Positions 7,103 through 20,499 of a DNA stretch of 64,000 nt are shown piece after piece. The stretch comes from Dehalococcoidia bacterium (lineage in GTDB: Bacteria; Chloroflexota; Dehalococcoidia; UBA2979), in assembly GCA_020845735.1 (NCBI GenBank), contig JADLFF010000037.1, positions 2,615 to 66,614 of the forward strand, read 5' to 3'. Each line of letters begins with the position of its first letter. The stretch's first letter is position 1. The notes beneath the pieces were generated by a model. The model had not been told where the DNA came from and ran no database searches. It saw nothing but the letters and a program-made list of their open reading frames with translations. A program made the translations under genes and the position numbers.

Positions 7103-7409
7103 TCTTCGAATCTTCGATGAAGGCTGACCGGACCACCGCGACTACGTCGCCCTCCTCTCGCTGCACACGATATCTCCGATCGTCCGGCGGACATGTGACC
7201 CGCGGGCAACTCGCGATCTTGCCCGCGCGGCCGGGACGCGCGACGAGTCGCGCTCTAGCGTCGCAGGTGCTGCGGGAGGGCTGGACACGAGCGGGCCGCC
7301 AGCCTCGGGACGGGACCGGCGGGTCAGGGCAGTGCCAGTCGGATCGTCGCAAGCGTCGTGCTGTGCTCCTCGGCGAACTGACCCTCTCGCAGCGCCAGAG
7401 TCCCTGCTA

Positions 7410-7439
7410 TTGAAATGCGTATACCACTTATCATATAAT
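7410..7439 (+). promoter_or_regulatory. Near-consensus sigma70-type promoter TTGAAA-N18-TATAAT (leaderless transcript predicted)
   Basis: TTGAAA at 7410–7415 and TATAAT at 7434–7439, in an AT-rich island inside 70%-GC DNA. The -10 box overlaps the first ATG (7438); the second in-frame ATG (7453) lies about 7–8 nt past the predicted transcription start. Confidence 0.45.
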
Positions 7440-7452
7440 GGCGAGGTCGAGC

Positions 7453-8337
7453 ATGAAGTCCATCGCCATCACCCAACACAATTCAGCCCTCTCGATCACG
7501 CCGGCTGACGACTACATCCTGAAAGTCCTGCTGCGGTTCCGCTATCTGGCGGCCCGCCAGGTCTGCGCATTGCGCTACTCGGCGGGCTCGCTCACGCGCG
7601 TTCAGGCCATCCTCAAGCGGCTCACCGACTCCGGATACCTGCAGCGCATCTGGTTGCCGCGGCGCACACCGCGCGGGAGCGCGCCATCCGTCTACACGCT
7701 CGCACGCAAGGGCCTCAACTACCTGCGCGCCCAGGGGATTGACGTGCCGGCGCGCTACCACCCATCGGAACAGCGCGAGCGTACGTACCTCTTCCTTGCC
7801 CACACCCTCGCGGTGAACGATGTGCTCATCGCTGCCGAGCTCTTCTGCCGGCGGGAGCCGCGCTACGCGCTCGCCGCGAGTGTGCCTGAGCATCTGCTCA
7901 AACGCAGTCCAGCGCGGGTAGAGGACGAGGCCGGGCGCCCGATCACGGTCATCCCCGACGGCTGGATCGACCTTCGCGTTGACGGCGCCTACCAGATTTG
8001 CCTCGTCCTCGAGCTCGACCGTGGCACTGAAGAACAGAAGGCGTGGCGGAGGAAGGTGCGCGGCCTCCTCGCGTACGCCAACGGCCCCTACCAGGAGGCG
8101 TTTCAGACGCGGTCGCTGACGATCGCGGTCGTCACCACGGACGGGCCGCGCCGGCTCCTCGACCTCTTGCGCTGGACGGAACGGGAGTTGACCGCGGTGC
8201 GGGAGCAGGAGCGGGGCGACCTCTTCATCTTCACGGAGATCGTGCCCGAGGCGATCTTCCCGCATGTGCTGTTCACGAGCCCAATCTGGTACCGACCGTT
8301 CGCGAGCGACGAGATCGCGCTGGTCGACCTCCAATAG
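7453..8337 (+). CDS. Replication-relaxation family protein (plasmid/conjugative-element wHTH protein)
   Basis: N-terminal winged-helix-like region (LKVLLRFRYLAARQVCAL...LKRLTDSGYLQR) and a C-terminal region typical of Replic_Relax proteins. Track start is 7438; ATG 7453 is preferred because of the promoter geometry. Confidence 0.55.
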   Translation: MKSIAITQHNSALSITPADDYILKVLLRFRYLAARQVCALRYSAGSLTRVQAILKRLTDSGYLQRIWLPRRTPRGSAPSVYTLARKGLNYLRAQGIDVPARYHPSEQRERTYLFLAHTLAVNDVLIAAELFCRREPRYALAASVPEHLLKRSPARVEDEAGRPITVIPDGWIDLRVDGAYQICLVLELDRGTEEQKAWRRKVRGLLAYANGPYQEAFQTRSLTIAVVTTDGPRRLLDLLRWTERELTAVREQERGDLFIFTEIVPEAIFPHVLFTSPIWYRPFASDEIALVDLQ

Positions 8338-8341
8338 TCCT

Positions 8342-9775
8342 ATGCAACTGCCCTGGCGGCATCGCGGCCCGAGGCTCGACCTCGGGACGCACGGCGCCGC
8401 CTTCTTTCCACGCACGCTCGCGCTCGGCGCGGAGCACGTCGCGGCGCACAAGCACGTGATCGGACTGACCGGCCAGGGGAAGAGCAAGTTCCTCGCGAGT
8501 ATGTTCGTGCAGCTCGTGCGGCAGGGTGTCGGCTGCACGCTCATCGACCCGCACGCGGACCTCGCCACCGACATCCTGGCGCTGCTGCACGACGACGGAC
8601 TGTTCTCAAGGTCGACCTTTGCTGATCGACTGCTGTACGTCGACTTCGCCCGCCGTGACCGCTTCCTGCCATTCAACGTCCTGAGCCAGCCGTACGACGA
8701 CCACACCGCGGCGCGCAACGTGGTCGAGGCCTGTAAGCGTGCCTGGCCGGCGCTCGCCGACGGTTCGGCGCCCCAGTTCGAGAACATCCTCCTCGCGGGC
8801 GCGCTCGTGCTGATTCAAAACCAGCTTCCATTGACGGCGCTGCCGCGACTCCTCACGGACAAGCTGCATCGCGACTCGCTGCTCGAGCGCGTCTCCGACG
8901 AGGCGGTGGTGGACTTCTTCCGCGGGCGGTTCGATCACTGGGGGCGCGACGCACCGCTAATGATCGAGTCGACGCTGCGCCGGGTCTTCCTCCTGTCCTT
9001 CAGTCCCTCGCTTCGCCACTCGCTCGGGCAGCGCGAGAACGCGCTCAACTTCCGCGCGCTGATGGACCAGGGGGTGAGCGTCATCTTCAACCTCGGTGGC
9101 CTCGACGAGGACACTCAGCGCCTGCTGGGGTCGCTCGTGACGGTCGGCTACGAAGTGGCCGCGCTCTCGCGTGCCGACACGCCGCTGGCGCAGCGCCGCC
9201 CCCACCACCTGTTCATCGACGAGTTCTCGCAGTTTTCGGCACAGAGCGAAGAGGCGTTCGCGCGCGTCCTCTCGCTCGCCCGCAAGTACGGCCTGTTCCT
9301 CACGCTCGCTCACCAGACCTGGTCACAGGTGAATCGTCGCCTGCAGGGGGCGCTGCAGAACGCCGTCGAGGTGGCGTTCAAGCTCGGGCGCAGCGACGCC
9401 GAGTGGGCGGCTCCCCGCTTCGGCCGCTTCGACCCGTACGCGTTGAAGCACGAGGTCGCGGACCCGGCGCACGTCGAGCGCACACACCCCGTGTACTTCA
9501 ACGTCCAGGAGACGTTCGAGGGGTGGACGCAGGCTCTCACCGACCTCGCTCCGCGCGAGGCGTTCGTGCGTGTCGGCAACGAGACGACGCGATTCCGGTC
9601 GCGCGCCGTCCCCACTCCACGCTGCGGAGCGGAGGAACTGCGGAGCTTGACTGACGCCTATGCCCGACGCCTGCTGCGGCCCGCACCCCTTGCGCCTGGC
9701 GCTCCAGCTCGCCGGCCGAGCGAGACCCGCGCGGCGTTCCGACGCGTCGTCCTCCGACCGGAACCGGGCGTCTGA
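8342..9775 (+). CDS. TrwB/TraD-like (type IV coupling protein-like) AAA ATPase, soluble, paralog 1
   Basis: Walker A HKHVIGLTGQGKSKF followed by LIDPHADL (compare TrwB GATGTGKS...VDPNGDM). Walker B-like HHLFIDEFSQF then ARKYGLFLTLAHQ. No N-terminal TM segment. Track start 8264 overlaps the upstream gene; in-frame ATG 8342 is preferred. Confidence 0.65.
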   Translation: MQLPWRHRGPRLDLGTHGAAFFPRTLALGAEHVAAHKHVIGLTGQGKSKFLASMFVQLVRQGVGCTLIDPHADLATDILALLHDDGLFSRSTFADRLLYVDFARRDRFLPFNVLSQPYDDHTAARNVVEACKRAWPALADGSAPQFENILLAGALVLIQNQLPLTALPRLLTDKLHRDSLLERVSDEAVVDFFRGRFDHWGRDAPLMIESTLRRVFLLSFSPSLRHSLGQRENALNFRALMDQGVSVIFNLGGLDEDTQRLLGSLVTVGYEVAALSRADTPLAQRRPHHLFIDEFSQFSAQSEEAFARVLSLARKYGLFLTLAHQTWSQVNRRLQGALQNAVEVAFKLGRSDAEWAAPRFGRFDPYALKHEVADPAHVERTHPVYFNVQETFEGWTQALTDLAPREAFVRVGNETTRFRSRAVPTPRCGAEELRSLTDAYARRLLRPAPLAPGAPARRPSETRAAFRRVVLRPEPGV

Positions 9776-9783
9776 TGGTGCCC

Positions 9784-9840
9784 GGGACGGTCATGGGCCC
9801 GAGCGCAGCGAGCCGGGGGCGGGGAGGCCTTGACCGTCCC
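9784..9840 (+). terminator. GC-rich hairpin (9-bp stem GGGACGGTC/GACCGTCCC, long loop) just after the stop of the T4CP-like gene
   Basis: Inverted repeat read directly from the sequence. No U-tract, as is common in high-GC actinobacteria. Confidence 0.3.
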
Positions 9841-9922
9841 CGTCCGGATTACCCTCTTTCTCGGGTGGGGAAGGCAAGACGCTGGCCGCACCCCACCGTT
9901 CCCTGCGAGCCCCGGGGCGCTC

Positions 9923-9953
9923 GATTTGGTATACTGCATATACATTTGTTGGT
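9923..9953 (+). promoter_or_regulatory. AT-rich promoter/operator-like island (TTTGGTATACTGCATATACATTTGTTGGTATGG) immediately upstream of ORF 9954
   Basis: Striking AT-rich 31-mer in GC-rich DNA. Contains TATACT (-10-like), the GTATAC palindrome and the repeated half-sites TTGGTAT. Confidence 0.4.
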
Positions 9954-10466
9954 ATGGAACGGGACCCTGAAGATCATCCGCGACCGAGCGAGCGCTCGGA
10001 ACTGATCGCTTCTCAAGAGCGGGCGCTGACCGTGGCGGTGGTCATGCTGCTCGACGCGCTCGACCGCTGCGGGGGCCACGAGGCCGGCTGTCCCGAGTGC
10101 GGCCCGGCACGGGCACTCGCCTTTGAGACGCTCGCCTCCAGTCCGGGGCTGACTACCGCGCAGGAGCGGAAACCCGAACGTCTGCAGATCCGCGGGCGCG
10201 CGGGGGCGGCACCGGCTTTTGGGAGCACCCGGCGTGGCGCGGCAGTGGCGCGCTTCCCGCTTGCCGTGCACGACCAGACGGGTACGACGACGTGGCACAC
10301 CGTGGTGGCGTTCGGGGATCGAGCCGAGCGGCTGCGCGGCGCGGTCGGACGTGGAGATGCGCTCGAGGTCGTGGGCTACTTCCATGAGCGAGCCGTCCGC
10401 GCGCGCGGGGGTCGGCCCCGCCAGGTCCGTGAGCTCTACGCGGCGGCGGTGCGGCCGCTAGTGTGA
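9954..10466 (+). CDS. Hypothetical protein with C-terminal SSB-like OB-fold (ssDNA-binding-like)
   Basis: C-terminal ARFPLAVHDQTGTTTWHTVVAFGDRAERL...GDALEVVGYFHER...RPRQVRELYAAAVRP resembles the SSB core (RFSLAV...WHRVV.FGKLAE...G..V.VEG.L). The N-terminal half has no recognisable domain. Confidence 0.35.
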   Translation: MERDPEDHPRPSERSELIASQERALTVAVVMLLDALDRCGGHEAGCPECGPARALAFETLASSPGLTTAQERKPERLQIRGRAGAAPAFGSTRRGAAVARFPLAVHDQTGTTTWHTVVAFGDRAERLRGAVGRGDALEVVGYFHERAVRARGGRPRQVRELYAAAVRPLV

Positions 10467-10469
10467 CCG

Positions 10470-11138
10470 ATTGGTGCCCGTCAGGCACCGCCATCGTTCG
10501 CGACCGAGCGATCGGCCCGGCGGTGCTGTTCGCGACCGTCGCCACACCCGGAACGGGTGCCCGCGCGGAGCGCCTCTTCCTGCCTGCCGAGGGGGTCAAG
10601 GGGGAATCGGCAGGTGGTCGGCCCCCCGCCGGGGGGTGCCCTCTCGCCGCCGCGATGGCAGCACGTCGGATGAGTACAAACAGTGCTCAGTGGAGAGACA
10701 ACGTGGATGCAGAGGCGAGAGGGCGGGGGGAGTGGGCGGCAACGCCGCAGGCGTTAGGAGCGAGCTCCGGGCTGCCCACTCCCCCCGCCCGCAGGGCACC
10801 ATCCGAGGCCCAGCCTCGGACATCCCCCTTGCTTCTGTCCGTCAGGACCATCCGGCGGGTCGCGCCGACTAGGGTGTCGACTTCTAGTCGAGACTCTAGT
10901 CGGTCGGGGGGCGGTTCGGTGTTCCCCGCAACCTCCCTTCTCCTCTTGCTTTTGCATTGTCCCGGCTGGGTCTTCTTTCAATGAGTATGTTTCGTCTGTG
11001 TATTCTTCCGCACCGTCGCACGCGCGGATCAGCCCGTCGTCATCCGCCGATTCGAACCGTGCGGAAGTCGCGATTCCCGACTTCTGGACGTCGTGATTGC
11101 CGACATCTGGATGTCAAGAAATACGACATCAGCCTGGG
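10470..11138. other. About 670-bp non-coding region rich in inverted and direct repeats between convergent genes (candidate oriT / origin / ncRNA locus of the mobile-element-like module)
   Basis: 17-bp perfect stem 10721–10737 / 10774–10790 with a nested hairpin AACGCC-gcag-GGCGTT (10741–10755). Palindrome cluster CCGACTAG...GTCGAC...CTAGTCGG at 10865–10903. Two 16-bp palindromic sites CCGACTTCTGGACGTCG (11078–11093) and CCGACATCTGGATGTC (11100–11115) spaced 22 bp, plus a third half-site at 11123–11130. Track ORFs here are low-complexity and on both strands. Confidence 0.45.
10473..10489 (+). terminator. Stem-loop GGTGCC-cgtca-GGCACC 7 nt after the ssb-like stop
   Basis: Perfect 6-bp GC-rich inverted repeat directly downstream of the TGA at 10464–10466. 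Confidence 0.3.
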
Positions 11139-11489
11139 TCAGCGGTTGGGCGTGCTTTGAACGCGGAAGCGGAGGGTGTAGCGGTTCGTCTTGCCGAGGC
11201 CCAATCGCTTGACCTGCACGAAGCCGGCGCGTTCGAGTTGATGGATGAAGGCGACCACGCTCTGACGGCTCACACCGATGTCGCGCGCGAGGGTCTCTTG
11301 CCCGGGGAAGCAGAAGTCGTTGTGCCAGGCGTAGGAAAGGAACATCGCGTAGGTGAGCTTGGCGCCCATGCTCAGGCTGCTGCTGCGCAGAATGAAGTTC
11401 GGGACCTGAGTGAACCCCTCAGCGAGAACCGGGTCGTGCGCCTCGAGCACGATCGTGCGCTCGCGGAGCAGGTCGCCGATCGACTTCAC
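11139..11489 (-). CDS. Winged helix-turn-helix protein (phage/plasmid replication-initiator RepA_N/DnaD-like HTH)
   Basis: GFTQVPNFILRS...AKLTYAMFLSYAWH...CFPGQETLARDIGVSRQSVVAFIHQLERAGFV is the typical RepA_N-like wHTH pattern. GTG start; GTGA overlap with the upstream gene. Confidence 0.5.
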   Translation of the reverse strand: MKSIGDLLRERTIVLEAHDPVLAEGFTQVPNFILRSSSLSMGAKLTYAMFLSYAWHNDFCFPGQETLARDIGVSRQSVVAFIHQLERAGFVQVKRLGLGKTNRYTLRFRVQSTPNR

Positions 11490-11995
11490 GATCGGCCCTC
11501 CTCGTCGAGCACCTCGGTGGTCGCCGACCCGCGCACGAGCGTGCGGTAGACGACCGACTCTTCCCAGGCGCTCTCACAGTCGGCGCGGAGGAGGTCGAGC
11601 GCAACCTGAACGAGCGCGTTCGCAGTGATCCTGGCGCCGTAGCGCTCCTCCAGCTCGAGCTTGAGGTGGCTCATCCAGCGGGCTTGATCGACGTAGATGT
11701 CGTGGGAGTAGCGACGCGCGCGACGTGGCGTGGTGGCGCTGGGCGTGGCCTGACCCGTTCCAAGCTCCGGGCGTACGGGCGCACCGGCGTTCGGACCCAC
11801 GCCCGCACGAGTGCTCGAGGGTGCGGGCGTTCCAGCGAGCGAGGCAGCACGTCCACGGGTGAGCGTCGAGCCCAGTCTGGGTGCGGGCGAGCCTTCGACT
11901 GCCGGTTCCGTCGGTGATGGCTGGCTGAAGAGCCGTTGTTCGCGTCCCGGCGTCTGCGCGCTGAGCTTGAGGCCGGAGAAAACGCTATCGGACAT
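11486..11995 (-). CDS. Hypothetical protein (start trimmed to MSDSVF, preceded by a GGAGG RBS)
   Basis: The track ORF runs to 12205, but its first 70 residues are R/S-rich shadow sequence. ATG at 11995 has GGAGG 7 nt upstream. No recognisable domain. Confidence 0.3.
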   Translation of the reverse strand: MSDSVFSGLKLSAQTPGREQRLFSQPSPTEPAVEGSPAPRLGSTLTRGRAASLAGTPAPSSTRAGVGPNAGAPVRPELGTGQATPSATTPRRARRYSHDIYVDQARWMSHLKLELEERYGARITANALVQVALDLLRADCESAWEESVVYRTLVRGSATTEVLDEEGRS

Positions 11996-12839
11996 CGGCG
12001 GCCTCCTTCCTCGCGAGGTTCTCGCGTCGATCGTCGGCGACGCTCTGGACGATCGCTCGGCTGACGGTTCGGGATTGCCGGTGGAACGCGAGCAGGAGCG
12101 AATTGTCGGCGAGGATGTTCGCCTCGCGCGGCGTCCCTTCGGACTGCTCGAAGATCGTCGCGACCGCGTCTCGGCTGAACGGATGGTGTCCCCCGCCCGA
12201 GGCAACCTGCCAGCGGAAGCGCAGCATCGCGTGCAGCTCGTCGAGGGACAGCCGCTCGAGCGTGGAGGCCATCACGATCCGGCTGCGGAAGTTCCGCAGC
12301 GCCGGGCGCGCGAGCGTGTTGCGGAGCTCGTCCTGTGCGAAGAGCACGAGCTGCAGAAGCTTGCTGTCGTTCGTCTCGAAGTTGATGAGCTGCCGGAGCA
12401 GTTCGAGGAGTGGGGGGCGTAGGGCCTGCGCCTCGTCAATGATGAGCACGACCGTGCGTCGCTCGGTCGCCGCGGTCGACCACAGGTGGTCCTTCAGCGT
12501 GTCGAGCGTGCCCTTGAAGCTGCGGCTCGTCCTCGGCGTGCCGAGCTCCTGCGCGATCGTGCGCAGCAGGCTGTTGGGTGTGGGGTAGTTCGGGTTGACC
12601 AGCAGCGCGGACAGGAAACCCGCGTCGAGGAACTTCTGGTGGAGCAGGCGCGCGAGCGACGACTTGCCCGTGCCGGTGTCGCCGTGCACGACGGCGAGGC
12701 CCTTGTGCGCCGCCACGACGTACGCCGTCTTCTCAAGGGCGGTGGAGTGCATCGCGGTCAGGAAGAAGTAGCGCGGTGAAGGGACCGTGGAGAACGGTTC
12801 CTCCTTCAGACCGAAGTACGCGAGATGGGGCAAATCCAT
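11985..12839 (-). CDS. ExeA/GspA-like AAA ATPase (AAA_22 family)
   Basis: N-terminus MDLPHLAYFGLKEEPFS matches the ExeA-type YLxHFGLxExPF start. Walker A GDTGTGKSSL, Walker B VLIIDEAQAL. Track start 12953 trimmed to the ATG at 12839. Confidence 0.7.
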   Translation of the reverse strand: MDLPHLAYFGLKEEPFSTVPSPRYFFLTAMHSTALEKTAYVVAAHKGLAVVHGDTGTGKSSLARLLHQKFLDAGFLSALLVNPNYPTPNSLLRTIAQELGTPRTSRSFKGTLDTLKDHLWSTAATERRTVVLIIDEAQALRPPLLELLRQLINFETNDSKLLQLVLFAQDELRNTLARPALRNFRSRIVMASTLERLSLDELHAMLRFRWQVASGGGHHPFSRDAVATIFEQSEGTPREANILADNSLLLAFHRQSRTVSRAIVQSVADDRRENLARKEAADVR

Positions 12840-14012: not shown

Positions 14013-16217
14013 ATGCATCCGGTGGCAGACGGCAAGATTGATCTCGGAGTTGAGCTGTTCAATGGAGAACCGGTGCGGCTCGGCCTCCGTGAACGTCAGC
14101 AAGGCACCTACATCCTCGGGAAGCCCGGCACGGGCAAGACGACACTGATAGAGCGCATGGTGCTGCAGGACATCGAAGCCGGGCACGGCGTCTGCGTGCT
14201 CGATCCCCACGGTGACCTCGTCGATGGCGTACTCGTCCAGATCCCAGCGCACCGCGAGCACGATGTGATCCTGCTCGACGCCGCGGACACGGACTTCCCG
14301 TTCGGCCTCAACCTCTTCGAGTGCCGCGACCTCACCGATCGGACTCTCGTCGGCCGAATCGCCGCCCAGGCCGTGGAGGTCTTCGAGAAGCTGTGGGGCG
14401 ATATTTCGTGGGGCCCGCAGCTGGCGCAGACGCTCCGTAACAGCGCCTACACGATGATTGAGAACGTGGGGTACACGCTCCTCGAGGTGCGGCGGCTGCT
14501 ACTTGATGAGGAGTTCCGGGCGCGACTGACGGCGAACCTCACGCTCGGCCAGGTGCGTGAGTTCTGGGAGCTCGAGTACAACCCCCTTCTACGCCGCGAA
14601 CAGCAGCAGCGTGTGAGTTCCACACTGAACAAGATTGATGAGTTCCTCACGCCGGCGGTCTACCCGATCGTGGGGCTCGGACGCACCACCGTCGACTTCC
14701 GGGCCGCAATGGACGCGGGCAAAGTCGTGCTCGTGAAGCTGCCGGTGGGTGTGCTCGGGGGCGATCCGGTCGCGCTGATCGGCTCGATGATCGTCGCGCA
14801 GATATTCAACGCCGCGCTTTCGCGCCAGGAACTCGACCCCGGCGCGCGCCGCCAATTCAATCTGTTCGCCGACGAGTACCACCGATTCGCGACGCCGACC
14901 TTCGCCGAGCTCCTCGCGGAAGCGCGCAAGTACGGCCTCGCTACCTTGCTCGCTCACCAGTTTCGGGACCAGCTCGACGAGCAGAACCGCGGCGCGACGC
15001 TGACCGCGGGGAACCTCCTCGTGTTCGGCGTGGGCGGCGGCGATGCCGAGGAGCTGGCGAAGCAGTTCGACCGCACGCCGCCCCCGCCAGACGTCGTGGG
15101 GCAACGGCCGAAGCTCACCGTGAACCAACGGCCGATCGAGCACCTGGTGAGACACGGACACGACAGCGACTTCGTACGCAGGGCGGTCGCCGCCTGGGTG
15201 CAACCGCTCGCGCATCGGGTGGAGACGATGCCCTCGGGCGGGGTGGCTGCCTCGACGCTACGCGTTCCAATCGAAGGACGCACCTCACCGATCGAGGTGG
15301 AATACGTCGCCGATGGCGGTTCGCTCCGGGCCGGCGCGGCGGCGATCGACGGCTTCTTGGTCAACGTGATGGAGCGGCGACTGAACCTTGGTACTGCGGC
15401 CGAGATCAGCGCGATCGCCCACGTGATTGCGCTCTTGCGAGCGCATATCTGCTTCGCGCCAGAACTGACCTTTTACGACGTTGATTACCCGTCTGTGCTC
15501 TCGGATCCCTCGCTGGAGTTGCCAGAGGCTACATCGCGCGCGCTGCTCGCATTCTTGACAGACTGGCTTCCCGATCGGGCGGCGCACCGGAACGCCGAGA
15601 GTCACACACGCGCGGGCGTTCTCGCACACCCAGCGGCGTCGCGGCTCGTCGAGGCGAGACTCTCTCACCTGAAATGGATCGACCAGCAAGAACAGGGCAT
15701 GGCGGAGTCCGAGGCGCTCAGGAATGCGGGGCCATTCACGACCGATCTCGCTCCGTTCGTCGATGAGGAACGACGAGAACGCGCGAGGGGTCATCCACAC
15801 CGCGCGGGCACCGAAACCTACGCCGCCGCGCGGCTCGCGTGGCAGTTGCACACGCTTGCCCTGGCTCTGCTGCGGGAGCCCATCTTTGTCGACAGCGGTC
15901 AGTGGGAGCCGATCTACGACCGTCCTCGCTCCTACGCGGACGTCGAGGGCGAGATTGCGTCGCGGTTGGTGAACTTACCGAAGTACCAAGCTCGAGGACG
16001 GCTGCTCGTCGACACCAACGTGCGCGAGGTCGACGTACAGACGCCAACCTTCGAGAACAGGCAGGCGACCGAGGAAGGCATCGCGCGCGCCGAGCGAATC
16101 CGAGCTCGCTCCCGGAGGGACTACTGCCTTCCGCTCGCGCGGGTCCTCGAGATCATCGCAGCGCGCGGGCGCGACGATCCACCACAAGAATCGACGCGGC
16201 GACGGGTTCCGATCTAG
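14013..16217 (+). CDS. TrwB/TraD-like (type IV coupling protein-like) AAA ATPase, soluble, paralog 2, with about 350-aa C-terminal extension
   Basis: Walker A YILGKPGTGKTTL then VLDPHGDL. Walker B-like FNLFADEYHRF then ARKYGLATLLAHQF, collinear with paralog 1 (8342–9775). No TM segment. C-terminal 350 aa without recognisable domain. Stop codon abuts the tRNA-like repeat A. Confidence 0.65.
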   Translation: MHPVADGKIDLGVELFNGEPVRLGLRERQQGTYILGKPGTGKTTLIERMVLQDIEAGHGVCVLDPHGDLVDGVLVQIPAHREHDVILLDAADTDFPFGLNLFECRDLTDRTLVGRIAAQAVEVFEKLWGDISWGPQLAQTLRNSAYTMIENVGYTLLEVRRLLLDEEFRARLTANLTLGQVREFWELEYNPLLRREQQQRVSSTLNKIDEFLTPAVYPIVGLGRTTVDFRAAMDAGKVVLVKLPVGVLGGDPVALIGSMIVAQIFNAALSRQELDPGARRQFNLFADEYHRFATPTFAELLAEARKYGLATLLAHQFRDQLDEQNRGATLTAGNLLVFGVGGGDAEELAKQFDRTPPPPDVVGQRPKLTVNQRPIEHLVRHGHDSDFVRRAVAAWVQPLAHRVETMPSGGVAASTLRVPIEGRTSPIEVEYVADGGSLRAGAAAIDGFLVNVMERRLNLGTAAEISAIAHVIALLRAHICFAPELTFYDVDYPSVLSDPSLELPEATSRALLAFLTDWLPDRAAHRNAESHTRAGVLAHPAASRLVEARLSHLKWIDQQEQGMAESEALRNAGPFTTDLAPFVDEERRERARGHPHRAGTETYAAARLAWQLHTLALALLREPIFVDSGQWEPIYDRPRSYADVEGEIASRLVNLPKYQARGRLLVDTNVREVDVQTPTFENRQATEEGIARAERIRARSRRDYCLPLARVLEIIAARGRDDPPQESTRRRVPI

Positions 16218-17103: not shown

Positions 17104-17375
17104 GCCTCGAGGAACGCGCGTAGGCGTTCGATGAGTCGGAGGAGATGGCTTTCGTGGTCGTCGGTAACGGCGAGATAGCGTTCGATCCCCTTCCCGACTT
17201 CCTCTAGCGCCGTACCGAATTCCGCATACTTCTGGTCGGTCCAGGTTCCTCCGAGGTTCCGCCAGTCGGCGACCATGCCCCTGTACTCGGCCTCGAGCGT
17301 GTCATCGAAACGAATCAGATGGTTGCGAAAGTCGATGAGCGCTTGGACGCTCCCCACGCCAACGCGGTCACTCAT
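17100..17375 (-). CDS. WXG100-like small helical protein (91 aa)
   Basis: Trimmed from track ORF 17100..17612 to the ATG at 17375 (GAAGGAGA RBS 5 nt upstream; ATGAGTGA overlap with the FtsK-like stop). Helix-turn-helix hairpin layout with central DWRNLGGTWTDQKYAEF. About 90–100 aa, the size of ESAT-6-like proteins. Confidence 0.4.
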   Translation of the reverse strand: MSDRVGVGSVQALIDFRNHLIRFDDTLEAEYRGMVADWRNLGGTWTDQKYAEFGTALEEVGKGIERYLAVTDDHESHLLRLIERLRAFLEA

Positions 17376-20300
17376 GCGCGTCTCCTTCAGCTGGAAGCAG
17401 GTCGTTGAGTCCGGCTGCTCCCAGCAATCGATACGGCTTGAACTTTTCCGTGCGCCCCAGCGCCCACTCTTCGTGGCGGAACAGGGCGCGGTTGTCCGCG
17501 AGCCGGCTGGCGACAGGTGAGTCGAAGAGCGAGTTGGAGTCGGCCTCGGGTACCCGGAGGGATGCCCGTAGGTCGAATCGCGACGTTCCCTGGCGGCCGA
17601 GAACGCGTTCAACGGCAGTCAGGCCATCCGTCCATGCGATCACGTGCCACCCTTGGTCCGGACCCTCGTCCGCGAGGCGTAACAAAGAGGTCGCCTCGGG
17701 TGTCTGCTGGTATGCATCGGGACCGCGGAGCTCGCGCCAGCGCTGGAGGCCAGTCACGACCAGGTAGCGAGGGCCGCGGGTTGCGTCGCTCGCGGCGAGG
17801 CGTGCATCGAGGTCCTCGAGGGCCGCGCCTAGCGCGGACCCAGCCTCGCGTGGCCCCGCGACCGAAACCTGGTTCGGGATGCGCTGCTGAAGCGCTGCCA
17901 TGACGCTGGACAGTGGACCGGTGCGTGCGAAGTCGAGGACGTAGAACGCAGCATCGGGCTGTTCGAGCGCGAGCGACACGACCACGGCTTCGAGGAGACC
18001 GTAGGCGTCAAGCTCGTCCGGGCCCGCGATCAGAAGGTTATTGCGAGGGAAGCGCTCAAAGCGTGCCGCTGTCGGCCCTTTGACTTCGACGGGTTCACCG
18101 AGGAACGCCTCGGCGGTGTCAGGGTCGGGTCGCCAAGCGCCGATCCGCAGCTCCTGCAACCTGGGATTTCCGGTCAACGAGGCCGGCGTCGTGCCCTCAA
18201 AGGTCGCGGGTGGAGGGTGTGCGCCGCCGTCACGGTCGGCGATCGCGGTGACTCTGGCCCGATGCTCGTCGCCAGGAAGTAGGGCCACGCGGATCCGGTG
18301 GTTCGCCGCGGTGTGACCAAAGTCCTCGTTGAGGATCGCCTCCCCCGGCTCTTCGAGCCGGGATGCAGCAACGTTTCCGTCTCCGAGGATTGCAGTCGAC
18401 GTCGCGTCCGAACTCTTGAACGCGACTCTTAACGGCATCTGTTCGTAGACGCGAGTAAGGTATCCCGACACGCCGGCCGGGGTTTGCGACGCCAGCAAGA
18501 CGTGGATCCCGAAGCCGCGGCCACGTCGGACCAAGTCCTCGAGAATCGCCCCGGCCTCGCGGCCGAGTTGGTCCTCGTCTGAGACGAGGACCTGGAACTC
18601 GTCCACGACCAGAAGGAGGCGAGGCATCGTGCCACCACGTGCACGGAACTCCGTGTATTGCGAGGCCCCAGCTTCTCGGAAGCGGCTCCCCCGGGCCTCG
18701 ATCTGAGCACGGAGGTCGCGAAGCACGCTGAGCGCGAACTCCCGATCGGTAGCCTGAGTAACCGCGCGAGCGTGCGGAAGCGCGAGGTAGTCGACGAACG
18801 AGACTCCTTCTTTGAGGTCAAGGAGGTAGAGGCCTAGCTCATCCGGCGAGTACCGAGACGCCAGTTGATCGATGAGGAGAAGGAGAAGGTTGGTCTTGCC
18901 TGACCCGACCATGCCGCCGACGAGGGCGTTGTGGATTGTGCCGGTGCCGAGGTGGAAGCTAGTGCTCTCGCCTTCGAGTGCCATTCCGATGGGCACCGAT
19001 AGGCCGTCGGCCGTGCTTGCGGCCCAGTCAATTGGGACAAGTACATCCGAAGAATCGAGCGCTCGGGGCCGCCCGAAGGCAGCGCGAACCCCGTCGAGCG
19101 CCGATTCGACGGTCGCTGCGTCCGGAATCTTCGACGGTACCAACGGAAAGTCCCCTAACAGGGCGCCGGGCAAATGCACGACGCCGACCTCGTTGACCTC
19201 CAAACGGCCCCACGGTCGGAAGGCATCGGCCAGCTTCATGTCGCGTGGCATTGGTGCGGCGGGGTCGAGTGTGGCTACGACGTGGAATCCTGCCCGCGGC
19301 CCGTTCCGGGCAAGGCGCGCAAGCAAATCGAGTGCCCGCTCGGTCCAGCCACCTGCAGGCAGTCTCAAGATCGCAACCAGGCGGTGCGGCTGCGCTAGCG
19401 CTGGGTTCGCTGCGTTGTACTCGTGGATCGTCGAGAAGCGCGCACCGAGCCGCGTCTGAAGCACGTCCTCACACTCCCGAGCGAGCGTCTCGAGCTCACG
19501 CTCGATTTCGTTTGAGCTCGTCAGGACGCGCTCCCCACGGATCGCGGGCGGGAGAGACAAGAAGGCGGATAAACCTTGGCCGGCGCCTACGGGATCAATC
19601 AAGGTCAGCCGAATAGCACCGGATGCGCTACCGGTGACCAGCTGGAACACGGTGGCACGAAGTAGGTCATCGCGATAAGCAGCGGGTCCGCCGTCGATGC
19701 CGAGGTGCCTTTGAGATAGCAGGAAGAACACCGCCAATGGGCCGAGGTCGTTCTGGAAGTCGATTGCTCCGATTCGTGCCGTGACCCCGTGGCGCAGAGG
19801 ATCTCCCGCAAGCGCGTCGAGCATGACGCGGATGATCGGCGGCGCACCACCCCCCAGCATCCGGACCATCTCTTCGAACGCTGCGACCGCCTCCTCGTGC
19901 CGTCCGAGTTGCGTGAGCTGGATCGCGCTGCTCATCAGAGTCCGGTCAGGCTGTTTGCGTCCTGCAACCGCAGGGTCCTGGACAGCCGCGATGACCGCAG
20001 GCGGCGGTGCAGCGACTCGAACGCCACCTTTCGCCTCAACCGCCCACGTCCCACTTAGCGAATCGTGCCAAGTGCGCTTTTCTGGGTGCCAAGCTGCCCA
20101 GACGTAGCCCAATCCGAGCGAGAGTAGGCTTAGAAATGAGGCGAGAAGCCGACCAAGCGCGCGCCCAGCACCGGGCCGATTGCCCTCTGAGTCGACTAGG
20201 CGAACGCCCACGAGCATGTGGCCCAGCGTTTGGCCACGTGCCCAGAAGAACCAGAAGTAGGCTACGAACACGACATTGCTGATGAGCTGTCGTGCTTGAT

Positions 20301-20499
20301 CGTTTTGGCCGAGGATCGCGCTGACGACTGAGATCAGGACACCGTCGATGATGTGACCGATCGCACGAGCCCAAAAGCCAGCGTAGACGCGGTCAGTCGG
20401 CGTCGCCGTTGATGGACGCACGTTCTGAGCTGCGCCGCAATGCGTGCAGAACGCCGCGCCTGCGGCAACCTCACGACTACAACTCGGGCAAGACGCCAT
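17368..20499 (-). CDS. FtsK/SpoIIIE-family ATPase with three P-loop domains (EccC/EssC-like) fused to N-terminal zinc-ribbon + RDD membrane domain
   Basis: N-terminus: CPSCSREVAAGAAFCTHCGA (Zn-ribbon), then an RDD pattern (YAGFWARAIGHIIDGVL...GQTLGHMLVGVRLVD...RTWHDSLSGTWAV). Domain 2 has canonical Walker A GGMVGSGKTNLLL and Walker B LLLVVDEFQVL. Domains 1 (VGAGQGLS) and 3 are degenerate, as in EccC D2/D3. Confidence 0.75.
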   Translation of the reverse strand: MASCPSCSREVAAGAAFCTHCGAAQNVRPSTATPTDRVYAGFWARAIGHIIDGVLISVVSAILGQNDQARQLISNVVFVAYFWFFWARGQTLGHMLVGVRLVDSEGNRPGAGRALGRLLASFLSLLSLGLGYVWAAWHPEKRTWHDSLSGTWAVEAKGGVRVAAPPPAVIAAVQDPAVAGRKQPDRTLMSSAIQLTQLGRHEEAVAAFEEMVRMLGGGAPPIIRVMLDALAGDPLRHGVTARIGAIDFQNDLGPLAVFFLLSQRHLGIDGGPAAYRDDLLRATVFQLVTGSASGAIRLTLIDPVGAGQGLSAFLSLPPAIRGERVLTSSNEIERELETLARECEDVLQTRLGARFSTIHEYNAANPALAQPHRLVAILRLPAGGWTERALDLLARLARNGPRAGFHVVATLDPAAPMPRDMKLADAFRPWGRLEVNEVGVVHLPGALLGDFPLVPSKIPDAATVESALDGVRAAFGRPRALDSSDVLVPIDWAASTADGLSVPIGMALEGESTSFHLGTGTIHNALVGGMVGSGKTNLLLLLIDQLASRYSPDELGLYLLDLKEGVSFVDYLALPHARAVTQATDREFALSVLRDLRAQIEARGSRFREAGASQYTEFRARGGTMPRLLLVVDEFQVLVSDEDQLGREAGAILEDLVRRGRGFGIHVLLASQTPAGVSGYLTRVYEQMPLRVAFKSSDATSTAILGDGNVAASRLEEPGEAILNEDFGHTAANHRIRVALLPGDEHRARVTAIADRDGGAHPPPATFEGTTPASLTGNPRLQELRIGAWRPDPDTAEAFLGEPVEVKGPTAARFERFPRNNLLIAGPDELDAYGLLEAVVVSLALEQPDAAFYVLDFARTGPLSSVMAALQQRIPNQVSVAGPREAGSALGAALEDLDARLAASDATRGPRYLVVTGLQRWRELRGPDAYQQTPEATSLLRLADEGPDQGWHVIAWTDGLTAVERVLGRQGTSRFDLRASLRVPEADSNSLFDSPVASRLADNRALFRHEEWALGRTEKFKPYRLLGAAGLNDLLPAEGDAHE

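Follow-up and report, generated by a model that had tools for sequence, protein, structure and literature searches.

A non-coding gap of 672 bp separates the converging ssb-like (+) and HTH_36 (-) genes of a conjugative element in Dehalococcoidia bacterium (Chloroflexota; GenBank assembly GCA_020845735.1, contig JADLFF010000037.1). It lies within the 64,000-nt stretch of DNA analysed here, which is called the window (positions 2,615 to 66,614 of the contig) and whose numbering is used throughout unless another locus is named. The gap contains a previously undescribed structured element, a nucleic-acid family of about 285 nt that is absent from Rfam and conserved across bacterial phyla, and this element is followed by arrays of short repeats. 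The region is tentatively read here as an origin that acts at the level of DNA, in the form of single-stranded DNA (ssDNA), that is, a candidate origin of transfer (oriT) and possibly also a site of second-strand priming, a reading held with slightly more doubt than confidence. To our knowledge, almost nothing is known of conjugation in Chloroflexota, and little is known of how the restriction-enzyme-like, non-covalent relaxases of the MOB_C family, one of which is encoded beside the region, process and recircularise DNA.

The conserved element is a multi-helix, pseudoknotted fold on the strand of the ssb-like gene, and it consists of the following parts.

10563 to 10848, + strand (ssb-sense): conserved structured element as defined by a covariance model, multi-helix and pseudoknotted, about 285 nt
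10563-66 with 10570-73, + strand: helix P0, with a GGA triloop
10580-89 with 10608-17, + strand: helix P1, with a purine-rich loop (..GGAGG-UUCAAGGGGGAA..)
10597-10605 with 10823-10831, + strand: pseudoknot (long-range helix), with a possible extension, 10591-95 with 10832-36
10622-27 with 10631-36, + strand: helix P2
10636-41 with 10794-99, + strand: helix P3'
10642-48 with 10714-20, + strand: helix P3, which encloses a variable insert
10721-40 with 10771-90, + strand: helix P4, with a three-way apex made of P4a (10741-55), a conserved TTAGG and P4b (10757-68)
10802-09 with 10813-20, + strand: helix P5
10837-40 with 10845-48, + strand: helix P6

In the pseudoknot, a helix of 9-12 bp, the loop of P1 pairs with the pyrimidine stretch TCCCCCTTG 220 nt downstream, and P3', P3 and P4 together form a four-way region. 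Besides P4, a 20-bp GC stem, and the pseudoknot, four other helices are long, and several of the small hairpins have C(GNA)G triloops as caps. An earlier note on this DNA, made from the letters alone, had described a non-coding region rich in hairpins, palindromes and phased repeats between convergent genes, and this description stands, in that all three kinds of feature lie where the note had placed them and are non-random, between the ssb-like gene at 9954-10466 (+) and the HTH_36 gene at 11139-11489 (-). The perfect 17-bp stem with a nested hairpin that it had placed at 10721-10790 is P4, whose 20-nt arms are 95% complementary, with 17 consecutive Watson-Crick pairs (10721-10737 with 10774-10790) and two nested hairpins, AACGCC-GCA-GGCGTT (10741-10755) and GGAGC/GCTCC (10757-10768). 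The density of dyad symmetry, which the note had taken as the signal of an origin, is nevertheless not the real signal, since this stem is one helix of a covarying, pseudoknotted fold of about 285 nt. That fold had escaped the note, which had proposed an oriT, another origin or a structured RNA and was correct in so far as a conserved non-coding cis element does lie beside a MOB_C relaxase gene.

Relatives of the region were gathered through homologues of the Replic_Relax relaxase (29 genome loci) and through a DNA pattern taken from the stem, which retrieved 104 metagenome stretches, about 45 of them true relatives (individual sequences are cited below by L numbers). A covariance model built from 29 sequences, from which the pseudoknot helix was left out, finds 36 distinct full-length copies with GC contents of 49-72%, the hosts being Chloroflexota, Actinomycetota and Acidobacteriota metagenome-assembled genomes, together with metagenomes. 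When pairs are counted over this alignment, 87.6% of cells are paired, against 50-54% with slid partners, a control that is fairer than shuffles because relatedness among the sequences inflates shuffle statistics; compensatory changes on both sides occur in 42 of the 57 pairs, and the covariation score is 0.389 against about 0.09 in the control. The pseudoknot, although outside the model, has 96.5% of its cells paired and compensatory changes in seven of nine pairs (for example CAAGGGGGA/TCCCCCTTG, CAGGGAAGG/CCTTCCCTG and CTGGAGGGA/TCCCTCCAG). RNAalifold returns the same helices as the consensus. Folding of the window sequence by itself recovers the long-range helix, P3', P3, P4, P5 and P6, while P1 is missing from such nested folds because it crosses the long-range helix. 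Compared with dinucleotide shuffles, the 291-nt core has a z-score of -5.5 when DNA parameters are used and of -4.3 with RNA parameters, and these scores, together with the conservation in relatives, whose flanking proteins show an identity of no more than 42-78%, exclude a chance origin. In P4 and the pseudoknot, the two best-aligned helices, G-T combinations outnumber A-C combinations by 41 to 13, and therefore the fold belongs to the + strand.

Two features of the data limit how these numbers are to be read. The small helices P0, P4a, P4b, P5 and P6 were not registered by MAFFT or by the first covariance model, so that they have the support of examples and no statistics. Moreover, the metagenome members were retrieved by the DNA pattern GGGGNAGT...CGGCAA...ACTNCCCC, which fixes 20 bases of P4, and the apparent invariance of GGGGNAGT/ACTNCCCC in this helix is therefore partly an ascertainment effect; the motif occurs also in loci that were found via the protein. 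As for known families, the Rfam scan that the earlier note had suggested was run and matched none: against Rfam 15, the best match of the window region was sR36 at 17 bits (gathering score 55), and 16 relatives gave only spurious miRNA-hairpin matches well below threshold, with no family at E <= 1.

The region is non-coding. Third-position GC periodicity is absent from it, gene callers place no gene there on the Logan contigs that span it, and insertions and deletions relative to its relatives are not multiples of three. On these grounds a coding role was rejected for the five open reading frames (ORFs) inside the region, and a translated ORF, which the earlier note had named as evidence that would overturn its proposal, finds no support. 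The fold may also leave a trace in the assemblies themselves: six independent short-read Logan contigs that carry this exact sequence (L002, L003, L010, L012, L013 and L015) break off inside the fold, at 10609-10731, two of them at 10713/10714, immediately before P4. Such breaks inside the fold are probably sequencing or assembly drop-outs at a strong GC hairpin.

The covariation is of the kind expected of a structured RNA, and the same result would hold for ssDNA. The loops of the fold are dominated by C(GNA)G triloop hairpins, of which 27 lineage representatives contain 45, against 3.3 +/- 1.7 in dinucleotide shuffles (a 13-fold enrichment); these 45 lie on the ssb-sense strand and only 2 on the opposite one, and coding DNA of the window holds 0.23 of them per 290 nt. 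For GNRA tetraloops there is no enrichment (7, where 5.1 are expected). At homologous positions the middle base of the triloop varies (GCA, GAA, GGA, GTA). The d(GCGNAGC) mini-hairpins are exceptionally stable as DNA, with melting temperatures of 70-76 degrees C, and far less so as RNA; they are bound poorly by single-stranded DNA-binding protein (SSB), and they are known at the complementary-strand origin of phage G4, at ssiA of RSF1010 and at the single-strand promoters of phage N4 (PMC13037366). The contrast between GNA mini-hairpins in DNA and GNRA tetraloops in RNA offers a rare computational handle on the ssDNA/RNA ambiguity of mobile-element motifs, here drawn from published loop thermodynamics and not from a control set of natural RNAs.

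Signals for transcription point the same way. A promoter and terminator scan of 9700-11700 gave no sigma-70-like promoter within the region on either strand and a single terminator-like site at 9906, outside the region, and in L021, where the fold has no co-oriented gene upstream, no consensus-like promoter is seen by eye in the gap of 85 nt. A near-consensus sigma-70 promoter does exist just upstream of the Replic_Relax gene, at about 7410-7445 (TTGAAT-17-TATAAT), and it is kept, as TTGAAT/TTGAAA, 17-18 nt, TATAAT, in all the relatives whose relaxase upstream regions were compared (window about 7196-7227 and 7405-7452; L016, L017, L019, L086 and L021); transcription of the fold would need read-through from there. 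Because of the C(GNA)G enrichment and the lack of transcription signals the fold leans to DNA, and we favour, from these sequence features, action at the DNA level over action as an RNA. Between the relaxase promoter and a divergent Xre-type (HTH_31) gene there is also a TTGCC-N6-GGCAA dyad, and promoter and dyad together look like the repressor-controlled switch of the element. An alternative oriT upstream of the relaxase was considered and set aside, as this stretch resembles an ordinary divergent promoter with a TTGCC-N6-GGCAA operator and has no large repeat or array.

Downstream of the fold, the region carries three groups of repeats, none of which is assigned to a strand.

10865 to 10903: CTAG short-repeat array, starting 17 nt after P6
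10966 to 11010: lower-GC stretch (55-59% GC) that holds three direct 9-mers, spaced 15 nt apart
11064 to 11133: three binding-type sites phased every 23 bp, immediately past the HTH_36 stop codon

In the first of these, TCTAGTCG occurs in two direct copies 12 nt apart (10883 and 10895) and one inverted copy, and only these are clear in the window. The earlier note had seen this cluster as palindromic, which is borne out by its 18-nt arms (10865-10882 and 10886-10903, 89% complementary), and the pattern CTAGAG..TTCTAG..CTCTA is kept in L017-19, L135, L094, L086, L047, L032, L111 and L021. More generally, all lineages have a lineage-specific array of 3-5 short repeats with a period of 11-13 nt, about one helical turn, which begins 15-50 nt after the fold; the array types differ by lineage (e.g. 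CTAGAG-type, AACGAYA, GGTGTAYC and CTCTGrTATTGG). The 9-mers of the lower-GC stretch are GTCTTCTTT (10970), GTATGTTTC (10985) and GTATTCTTC (11000), and they are kept in L017-19, L135, L094, L086, L143 and L047, although in the window taken by itself they do not stand out statistically. The phased sites comprise site A, CGACTTCTGGACGTCG, at 11078-11093, site B, CGACATCTGGATGTCA, at 11101-11116, and the half-site CGACATCAG at 11124-11132, with a further GAAGTCG/CGACTTC dyad at 11064-84; the exact GACATCTGGATGTC occurs once in 64 kb. Thus the two 16-bp palindromes and the half-site of the earlier note are present, at a spacing of 23 bp and not the 22 bp that it had given. Both the 9-mers and the phased palindromes are confined to the window lineage, whereas the fold and its adjacent array are universal.

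In L047 and L099, where HTH_36 is 42% identical to that of the window, the dyads read GGAATCttGATTCC in place of GACATCnnGATGTC, with positions and spacing kept, and they are best assigned to HTH_36 because their sequence changes together with this protein. The CTAG array is unchanged in L047 while the dyads differ, and a comparison of this kind suggests that the array is best assigned to another, more conserved protein. An operator, as the earlier note had proposed, is not the obvious role of the phased palindromes, since they lie at the 3' end of the HTH_36 gene, where there is no promoter-like site; of the binding arrays for RepA_N/Replic_Relax-type proteins that it had envisaged, binding-type arrays and a Replic_Relax gene are found, and no RepA_N protein is present. 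Further, a 10-mer, TTCGAGGACA, stands 17-133 nt after the fold in several highly divergent lineages, exact in L140, L136, L076/L093 and L023/L054 and with one mismatch in L084, L047 and L067, an equal or better match appearing in shuffles at a frequency of <=0.03 in each of these. This 10-mer may be a conserved box for recognition or nicking, and was not adopted as a universal nick site, being absent from the window lineage.

The genes around the region that bear on its interpretation, with the spacer that precedes the fold, are as follows.

7453-8337, + strand: Replic_Relax protein (MOB_C-type relaxase; Pfam PF13814, E = 7e-21, 75.5 bits against a cutoff of 25.3)
8342-9775, + strand: coupling-protein-like ATPase, next to Replic_Relax
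9954 to 10466, + strand: ssb-like gene (Pfam SSB, E = 1.7e-10; PHROG 44), directly upstream of the fold on the same strand
10467 to 10562, + strand: lineage-specific spacer that parts the fold from the ssb stop codon, with a hairpin of its own at about 10472-10488
11139 to 11489, - strand: HTH_36 winged-helix gene (Pfam HTH_36), convergent on the region
to 12839, - strand: AAA_22 ATPase gene (Pfam AAA_22), beyond HTH_36 and an unknown 169-amino-acid (aa) gene

PF13814 is the family called MobC, of the MOB_C relaxases, in Conjscan, and these relaxases have a PD-(D/E)XK fold and do not attach covalently to DNA. Relaxase, coupling protein and ssb-like gene thus form a set of DNA-processing genes that terminates at the region, and the genes on the other strand are those of HTH_36, the 169-aa protein and the AAA_22 ATPase. 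In PHROG, HTH_36 matches the N-terminal domains with which replication initiators and DnaD- or O-like proteins bind DNA, and its initiator-like winged-helix character has its support from PHROG alone. The AAA_22 ATPase matches the DNA transposition protein family phrog_296 in PHROG; in NCBIfam it scores best as a PEP-CTERM-system-associated ATPase and has a weak Orc1/Cdc6 match. Searches against PDB sequences were uninformative for AAA_22 and HTH_36 and returned weak SSB matches only for the ssb-like protein, BLASTN of the 4.9-kb module against plasmids and phages found nothing, and neither did TBLASTN of the relaxase against plasmids. In the ssb-like proteins a Cys-rich motif at the N terminus (..RCGGD(D/E)..CPxCGPAR..) precedes the oligonucleotide-binding (OB) fold, and the proteins end in ..ELYAA.V(R/L)P(R/L), which is not the canonical acidic tail of SSB; some homologues of 250-280 aa have an extra N-terminal domain. 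Within the spacer at 10467-10562, GTTCGCGACCG forms a direct repeat (10496 and 10528), and the spacer is missing in L016-L019, L086 and L047, loci in which P0 directly adjoins the stop codon of ssb or overlaps it.

The mobile-element genes lie in the part of the window from 1 to about 21,000, where GC content is 64-70%, mostly about 65%, against about 71% beyond, and this step near 21 kb is the likely right boundary of the element. This part of the window also includes type I restriction-modification genes and a Fic gene. Further genes encode a second TrwB-like ATPase and an FtsK/RDD protein: the two TrwB/TraD-like ATPases (8342-9775 and 14013-16217) are paralogous, both matching PHROG 5156, and the FtsK/SpoIIIE protein encoded at 17368-20499, 1043 aa long, contains both a zinc ribbon and an RDD domain. 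Such a set of three candidate DNA translocases is unusual for a single element. A second low-GC island (62%) lies at 53-56 kb, and no tRNA gene was found in the 64-kb window.

Comparison of loci shows how closely the fold is tied to this backbone. In L016-L019, L023 and L032, the non-coding DNA after ssb keeps long blocks that are identical across all four aligned sequences, whereas the flanking proteins are only 42-76% identical. Of 35 related loci, 21 have a co-oriented ssb-like gene upstream of the fold, usually with -8 to +232 nt between gene and model start (19 loci within about 230 nt; about 900 nt in two), and this association is not universal, being absent from L021, L078, L076/L087 and others. 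The downstream gene, where it can be identified, is usually a convergent HTH_36-type winged helix (L135, L094, L047, L086, L111, L023 and the L090 lineage), which in L111 and L023 is a protein of 408-425 aa with an HTH_36-type domain. Replic_Relax and the coupling protein co-occur in L016-19, L021, L023, L032, L039, L071, L086, L090, L092 and L111, and a Replic_Relax gene was present also in loci that had been found from the DNA pattern alone (L071, L090, L086, L111 and L092). Conversely, the Kitasatospora relatives L029, L030 and L033 have relaxase and ssb and lack the fold. Copies of the fold without Replic_Relax adjoin HEPN/Toprim and Topo6A/Spo11-Toprim genes, which resemble Wadjet-type defence genes, and a ParA gene (L078 201-1463 and 7187-8455; L087 5403-6278); as it occurs beside other gene sets, the fold is not restricted to one element backbone.

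In some relatives the module is inverted with respect to the relaxase and coupling-protein genes, while the order ssb, fold, repeats, HTH_36, 169-aa gene, AAA_22 is unchanged (window 9954-12839 compared with L017 10227-13063, L018 9721-12570, L019 9994-12829 and L032). Judging by gene order, the block from ssb to AAA_22 behaves as a self-contained module or an invertible segment, and the order of fold and then repeats, kept even in inverted modules, suits a self-contained origin. In L078, L072, L073, L146, L097 and L055, an extra conserved segment lies 30-110 nt upstream of the fold (..CCCTTGAC..CGTGTGACACAATGGA..AGCAAGCGA..), with hexamers whose spacing does not suit sigma-70; the flank was sufficient in four of these six, and showed no ssb in L078, L146 and L097 and an ssb about 900 nt away in L055. 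As a sigma-70 promoter for the ssb-less copies, the boxes TTGAC..CACAATGG..AGCAAGCGA conserved upstream would be wrongly spaced.

In the origin reading, an integrative conjugative element of the MOB_C (Replic_Relax) kind would have in this region its cis-acting locus for DNA processing. The relaxase, via its N-terminal helix-turn-helix (HTH), or an accessory protein would bind the repeat array and so provide specificity; the fold would form once the ssb-sense strand is unwound or transferred, would stay free of SSB, and would serve as the nick or termination domain of an oriT, as a signal for host priming of the complementary strand (a single-strand origin, sso), or as both. Some priming signal would be needed, since no primase was recognised among the element proteins scanned. 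The long-range helices may hold both ends of the transferred strand together for ligation, a role proposed because MOB_C relaxases are not covalently attached to DNA. The palindromes and 9-mers may be the binding region of an initiator-like HTH_36/AAA_22 module that acts in replication or regulation. The array-binding protein, the position of the nick and the priming or ligation role are what we infer; extensive pairing on one strand, a non-coding character and a place near a nicking-initiator gene, as expected of an sso, are what the region presents. A bolder version, which we regard as quite unlikely, is that the fold is a self-splinting ssDNA origin whose long-range helices rejoin the ends of the incoming strand into a nicked duplex for host ligase. 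The pseudoknot, P3, P3' and P4 would re-associate the strand ends and the SSB-resistant GNA mini-hairpins would mark the priming site, splinting being needed because restriction-enzyme-like, non-covalent MOB_C relaxases would be unable to rejoin the strand themselves. If true, conjugation would have a new way, based on structure, of recircularising the strand, and this would place the fold among the most complex natural functional ssDNA folds known.

Several observations weigh against the origin reading, whose main rival is a structured non-coding RNA, which we consider possible but on the unlikely side. With its pseudoknot, multi-way junctions and 285 nt, the fold is far more elaborate than any oriT inverted repeat or sso that we know of; such complexity is more typical of RNA. 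Its position 3' of a co-oriented ssb in 21 of the 35 loci, with the stop codon sometimes overlapped, is the one that an element in a 3' untranslated region would have, and in the origin model ssb stands on the trailing side, whereas classical plasmids have theirs in the leading region. L076/L087, L078 and L060, with 7-12 kb of flank, yielded no Replic_Relax gene, the fold has by eye no sequence similarity to the oriT-like region of plasmid pAM373 discussed below, and a T-rich tract resembling an intrinsic terminator follows P6 in two lineages (L090 and L076). The boxes of ssoA-type single-strand origins are RS_B and, in a terminal loop, CS-6 (TAGCGT); neither was seen by eye, there being only the TTAGG junction at the apex of P4, and TAGCGT arises in two lineages only, where this junction happens to abut the P4b stem. 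Finally, ssDNA and RNA motifs are not reliably separable by bioinformatic means (Weinberg et al. 2017).

As an RNA, the fold would be the 3' end of the relaxase/coupling-protein/ssb transcript, or would have its own promoter where ssb is missing, and its role could lie in stabilisation or processing, in a partnership with the ssb-like OB-fold protein, or in priming or regulation like that by RNA II of ColE1 at the adjacent repeats and AT-rich region, the arrays then being separate DNA sites. The strong strand-specific covariation with G-U-compatible pairs and the z-score of -4.3 with RNA parameters speak for this reading, and the pseudoknot, multi-way junction and conserved purine-rich unpaired stretches are typical of ornate RNAs, but no Rfam 15 family corresponds to the fold even at E <= 1. 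The pairing of a GGAGG stretch with a CCUCC stretch likewise favours RNA; against it, there is no downstream ORF to regulate. Co-orientation with ssb, within about 230 nt in 19 loci and with P0 sometimes over the stop codon, also favours RNA; against this, no promoter-like site is present in the region or, by eye, before the ssb-less copy of L021, whereas the real relaxase promoter is a perfect consensus. The T-rich tract of the L090 and L076 lineages counts in favour of RNA, yet a terminator-like end is missing in most lineages, and the tract was rejected as a general terminator since only two lineages have one. C(GNA)G triloops dominate the loops, GNRA is not enriched and the mini-hairpins are much less stable in RNA, and a free-standing RNA leaves unexplained why a lineage-specific DNA array always follows 15-50 nt downstream.

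Unlikely in our view is a vegetative origin (theta-type or unidirectional) of the excised element, with the relaxase acting elsewhere. HTH_36 would then bind the phased palindromes, the lower-GC stretch of 9-mers would melt, AAA_22 would load the helicase, and unwinding would expose the fold as a single-strand initiation signal, like ssiA and ssiB in the vegetative origin (oriV) of RSF1010. Because HTH_36 resembles the DNA-binding domains of phage replication initiators and of DnaD- or O-like proteins and AAA_22 is weakly similar to Orc1/Cdc6, the right third of the region could indeed also be an initiator-binding origin, and the 408-425-aa convergent proteins of L111 and L023 with an HTH_36-type domain agree with this; HTH_36 itself, however, has only 116 aa, a DNA-binding domain alone that could equally be a regulator, and AAA_22 scores best against the PEP-CTERM-system-associated ATPase and the PHROG DNA transposition family. 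The three 23-bp-phased palindromes co-vary with HTH_36 and adjoin the stretch of 55-59% GC, but this 'AT-rich' stretch still has 55% GC, and palindromes and 9-mers occur in the window lineage only, while fold and short array are universal. The block of ssb, fold, HTH_36 and AAA_22 is inherited and inverted as a unit, and its GNA mini-hairpins have counterparts at ssiA and at the origin of G4, both of which speak for this reading; the single-strand initiation sites known so far, however, are hairpins of 40-140 nt and not pseudoknotted folds of 285 nt. The least credible proposal, which we give almost no weight, is a terminator pair or insulator between convergent operons, or chance dyads in GC-rich DNA. 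The position between convergent genes would suit it, and a 20-bp GC stem would block transcription from both sides, but terminators neither need nor conserve a pseudoknot and five long-range helices in which pairs change in a compensatory way from phylum to phylum, the T-tract is missing in most lineages, no terminator-like site lies inside the region, and chance is contradicted by folding z-scores and conservation. A terminator-only or chance explanation is effectively excluded by the covariation data.

The structured family of 285 nt is new, well supported and not in Rfam; it now has a covariance model and at least 36 members. The region also provides a testable candidate origin for widespread MOB_C elements in soil and subsurface bacteria of several phyla. 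Should the fold turn out to be an RNA instead, it would be a new class of large ornate RNA tied to ssb genes on conjugative elements.

Among known systems, single-strand origins (ssoA, ssoT, ssoU and ssoW, sso1 of ICEBs1, the G4 origin, and ssiA and ssiB of RSF1010) are also non-coding, strand-specific, heavily paired and close to the gene of a nicking initiator. In ICEBs1, a single-strand origin of 200 bp lies directly downstream of the relaxase gene nicK (sso1; PMC4595007). The window fold shares the GNA-capped mini-hairpins of the G4 origin and ssiA, and is larger and more complex than the single-strand origins described. The fold can also be compared with the STAXI motif, which occurs near ssb genes, and with plasmid-associated structured motifs. 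Of the latter, ARRPOF, GEBRO and PAGEV are long conserved structures (223-349 nt) in mobile-element replication regions, which their authors left undecided between RNA and ssDNA (Weinberg et al. 2017). The window element differs from these motifs in hosts, sequence and architecture. These motifs are presumably filed in Rfam, and no Rfam 15 family matches the window or its 16 relatives. The right third of the region alone is reminiscent of a lambda-type iteron origin, with three 23-bp-phased dyads, a lower-GC stretch and an O/DnaD-like winged-helix gene; unlike in such an origin, the sites are not inside the initiator-like gene but downstream of this gene, which encodes a 116-aa DNA-binding domain only, and they are found in one lineage.

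The closest parallel is with pAD1 (oriT2) and pAM373 of Enterococcus faecalis, which have a relaxase of the same family with a coupling-protein gene alongside. The intergenic region between the coupling-protein and relaxase genes of pAM373 (L150 14392-14629), which we take to be the experimentally defined oriT of the plasmid, contains five direct repeats (TTAGGCATACCT-like) with a period of exactly 12 nt and, directly beside them, a two-tier perfect inverted repeat of 142 nt with arms of 18 nt and 25 nt. The inverted repeat is reportedly alike in pAD1 and pAM373, is said to hold the nick and has reportedly been proposed to aid ligation of the transferred strand, while the short repeats are said to differ and to carry specificity. 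There are clear differences: pAM373 has a simple two-tier hairpin, the window a 285-nt multi-helix, pseudoknotted fold with strand-specific covariation; the window region comes after ssb at the end of the relaxase operon and not between coupling-protein and relaxase genes; the orientation of its module relative to the relaxase gene varies, unlike in pAD1/pAM373; and its family, known here from sequence alone, is hosted by Chloroflexota, Actinomycetota and Acidobacteriota. Even so, the layout of short direct repeats with a period of about 12 nt beside a large inverted repeat recurs in the window, where copies of TCTAGTCG stand 12 nt apart next to a fold that includes a stem with 20-nt arms, and a conserved fold with short repeats that differ by lineage parallels what is reported for pAD1 and pAM373. 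The intergenic anatomy of pAM373 is thus a useful reference for MOB_C origins.

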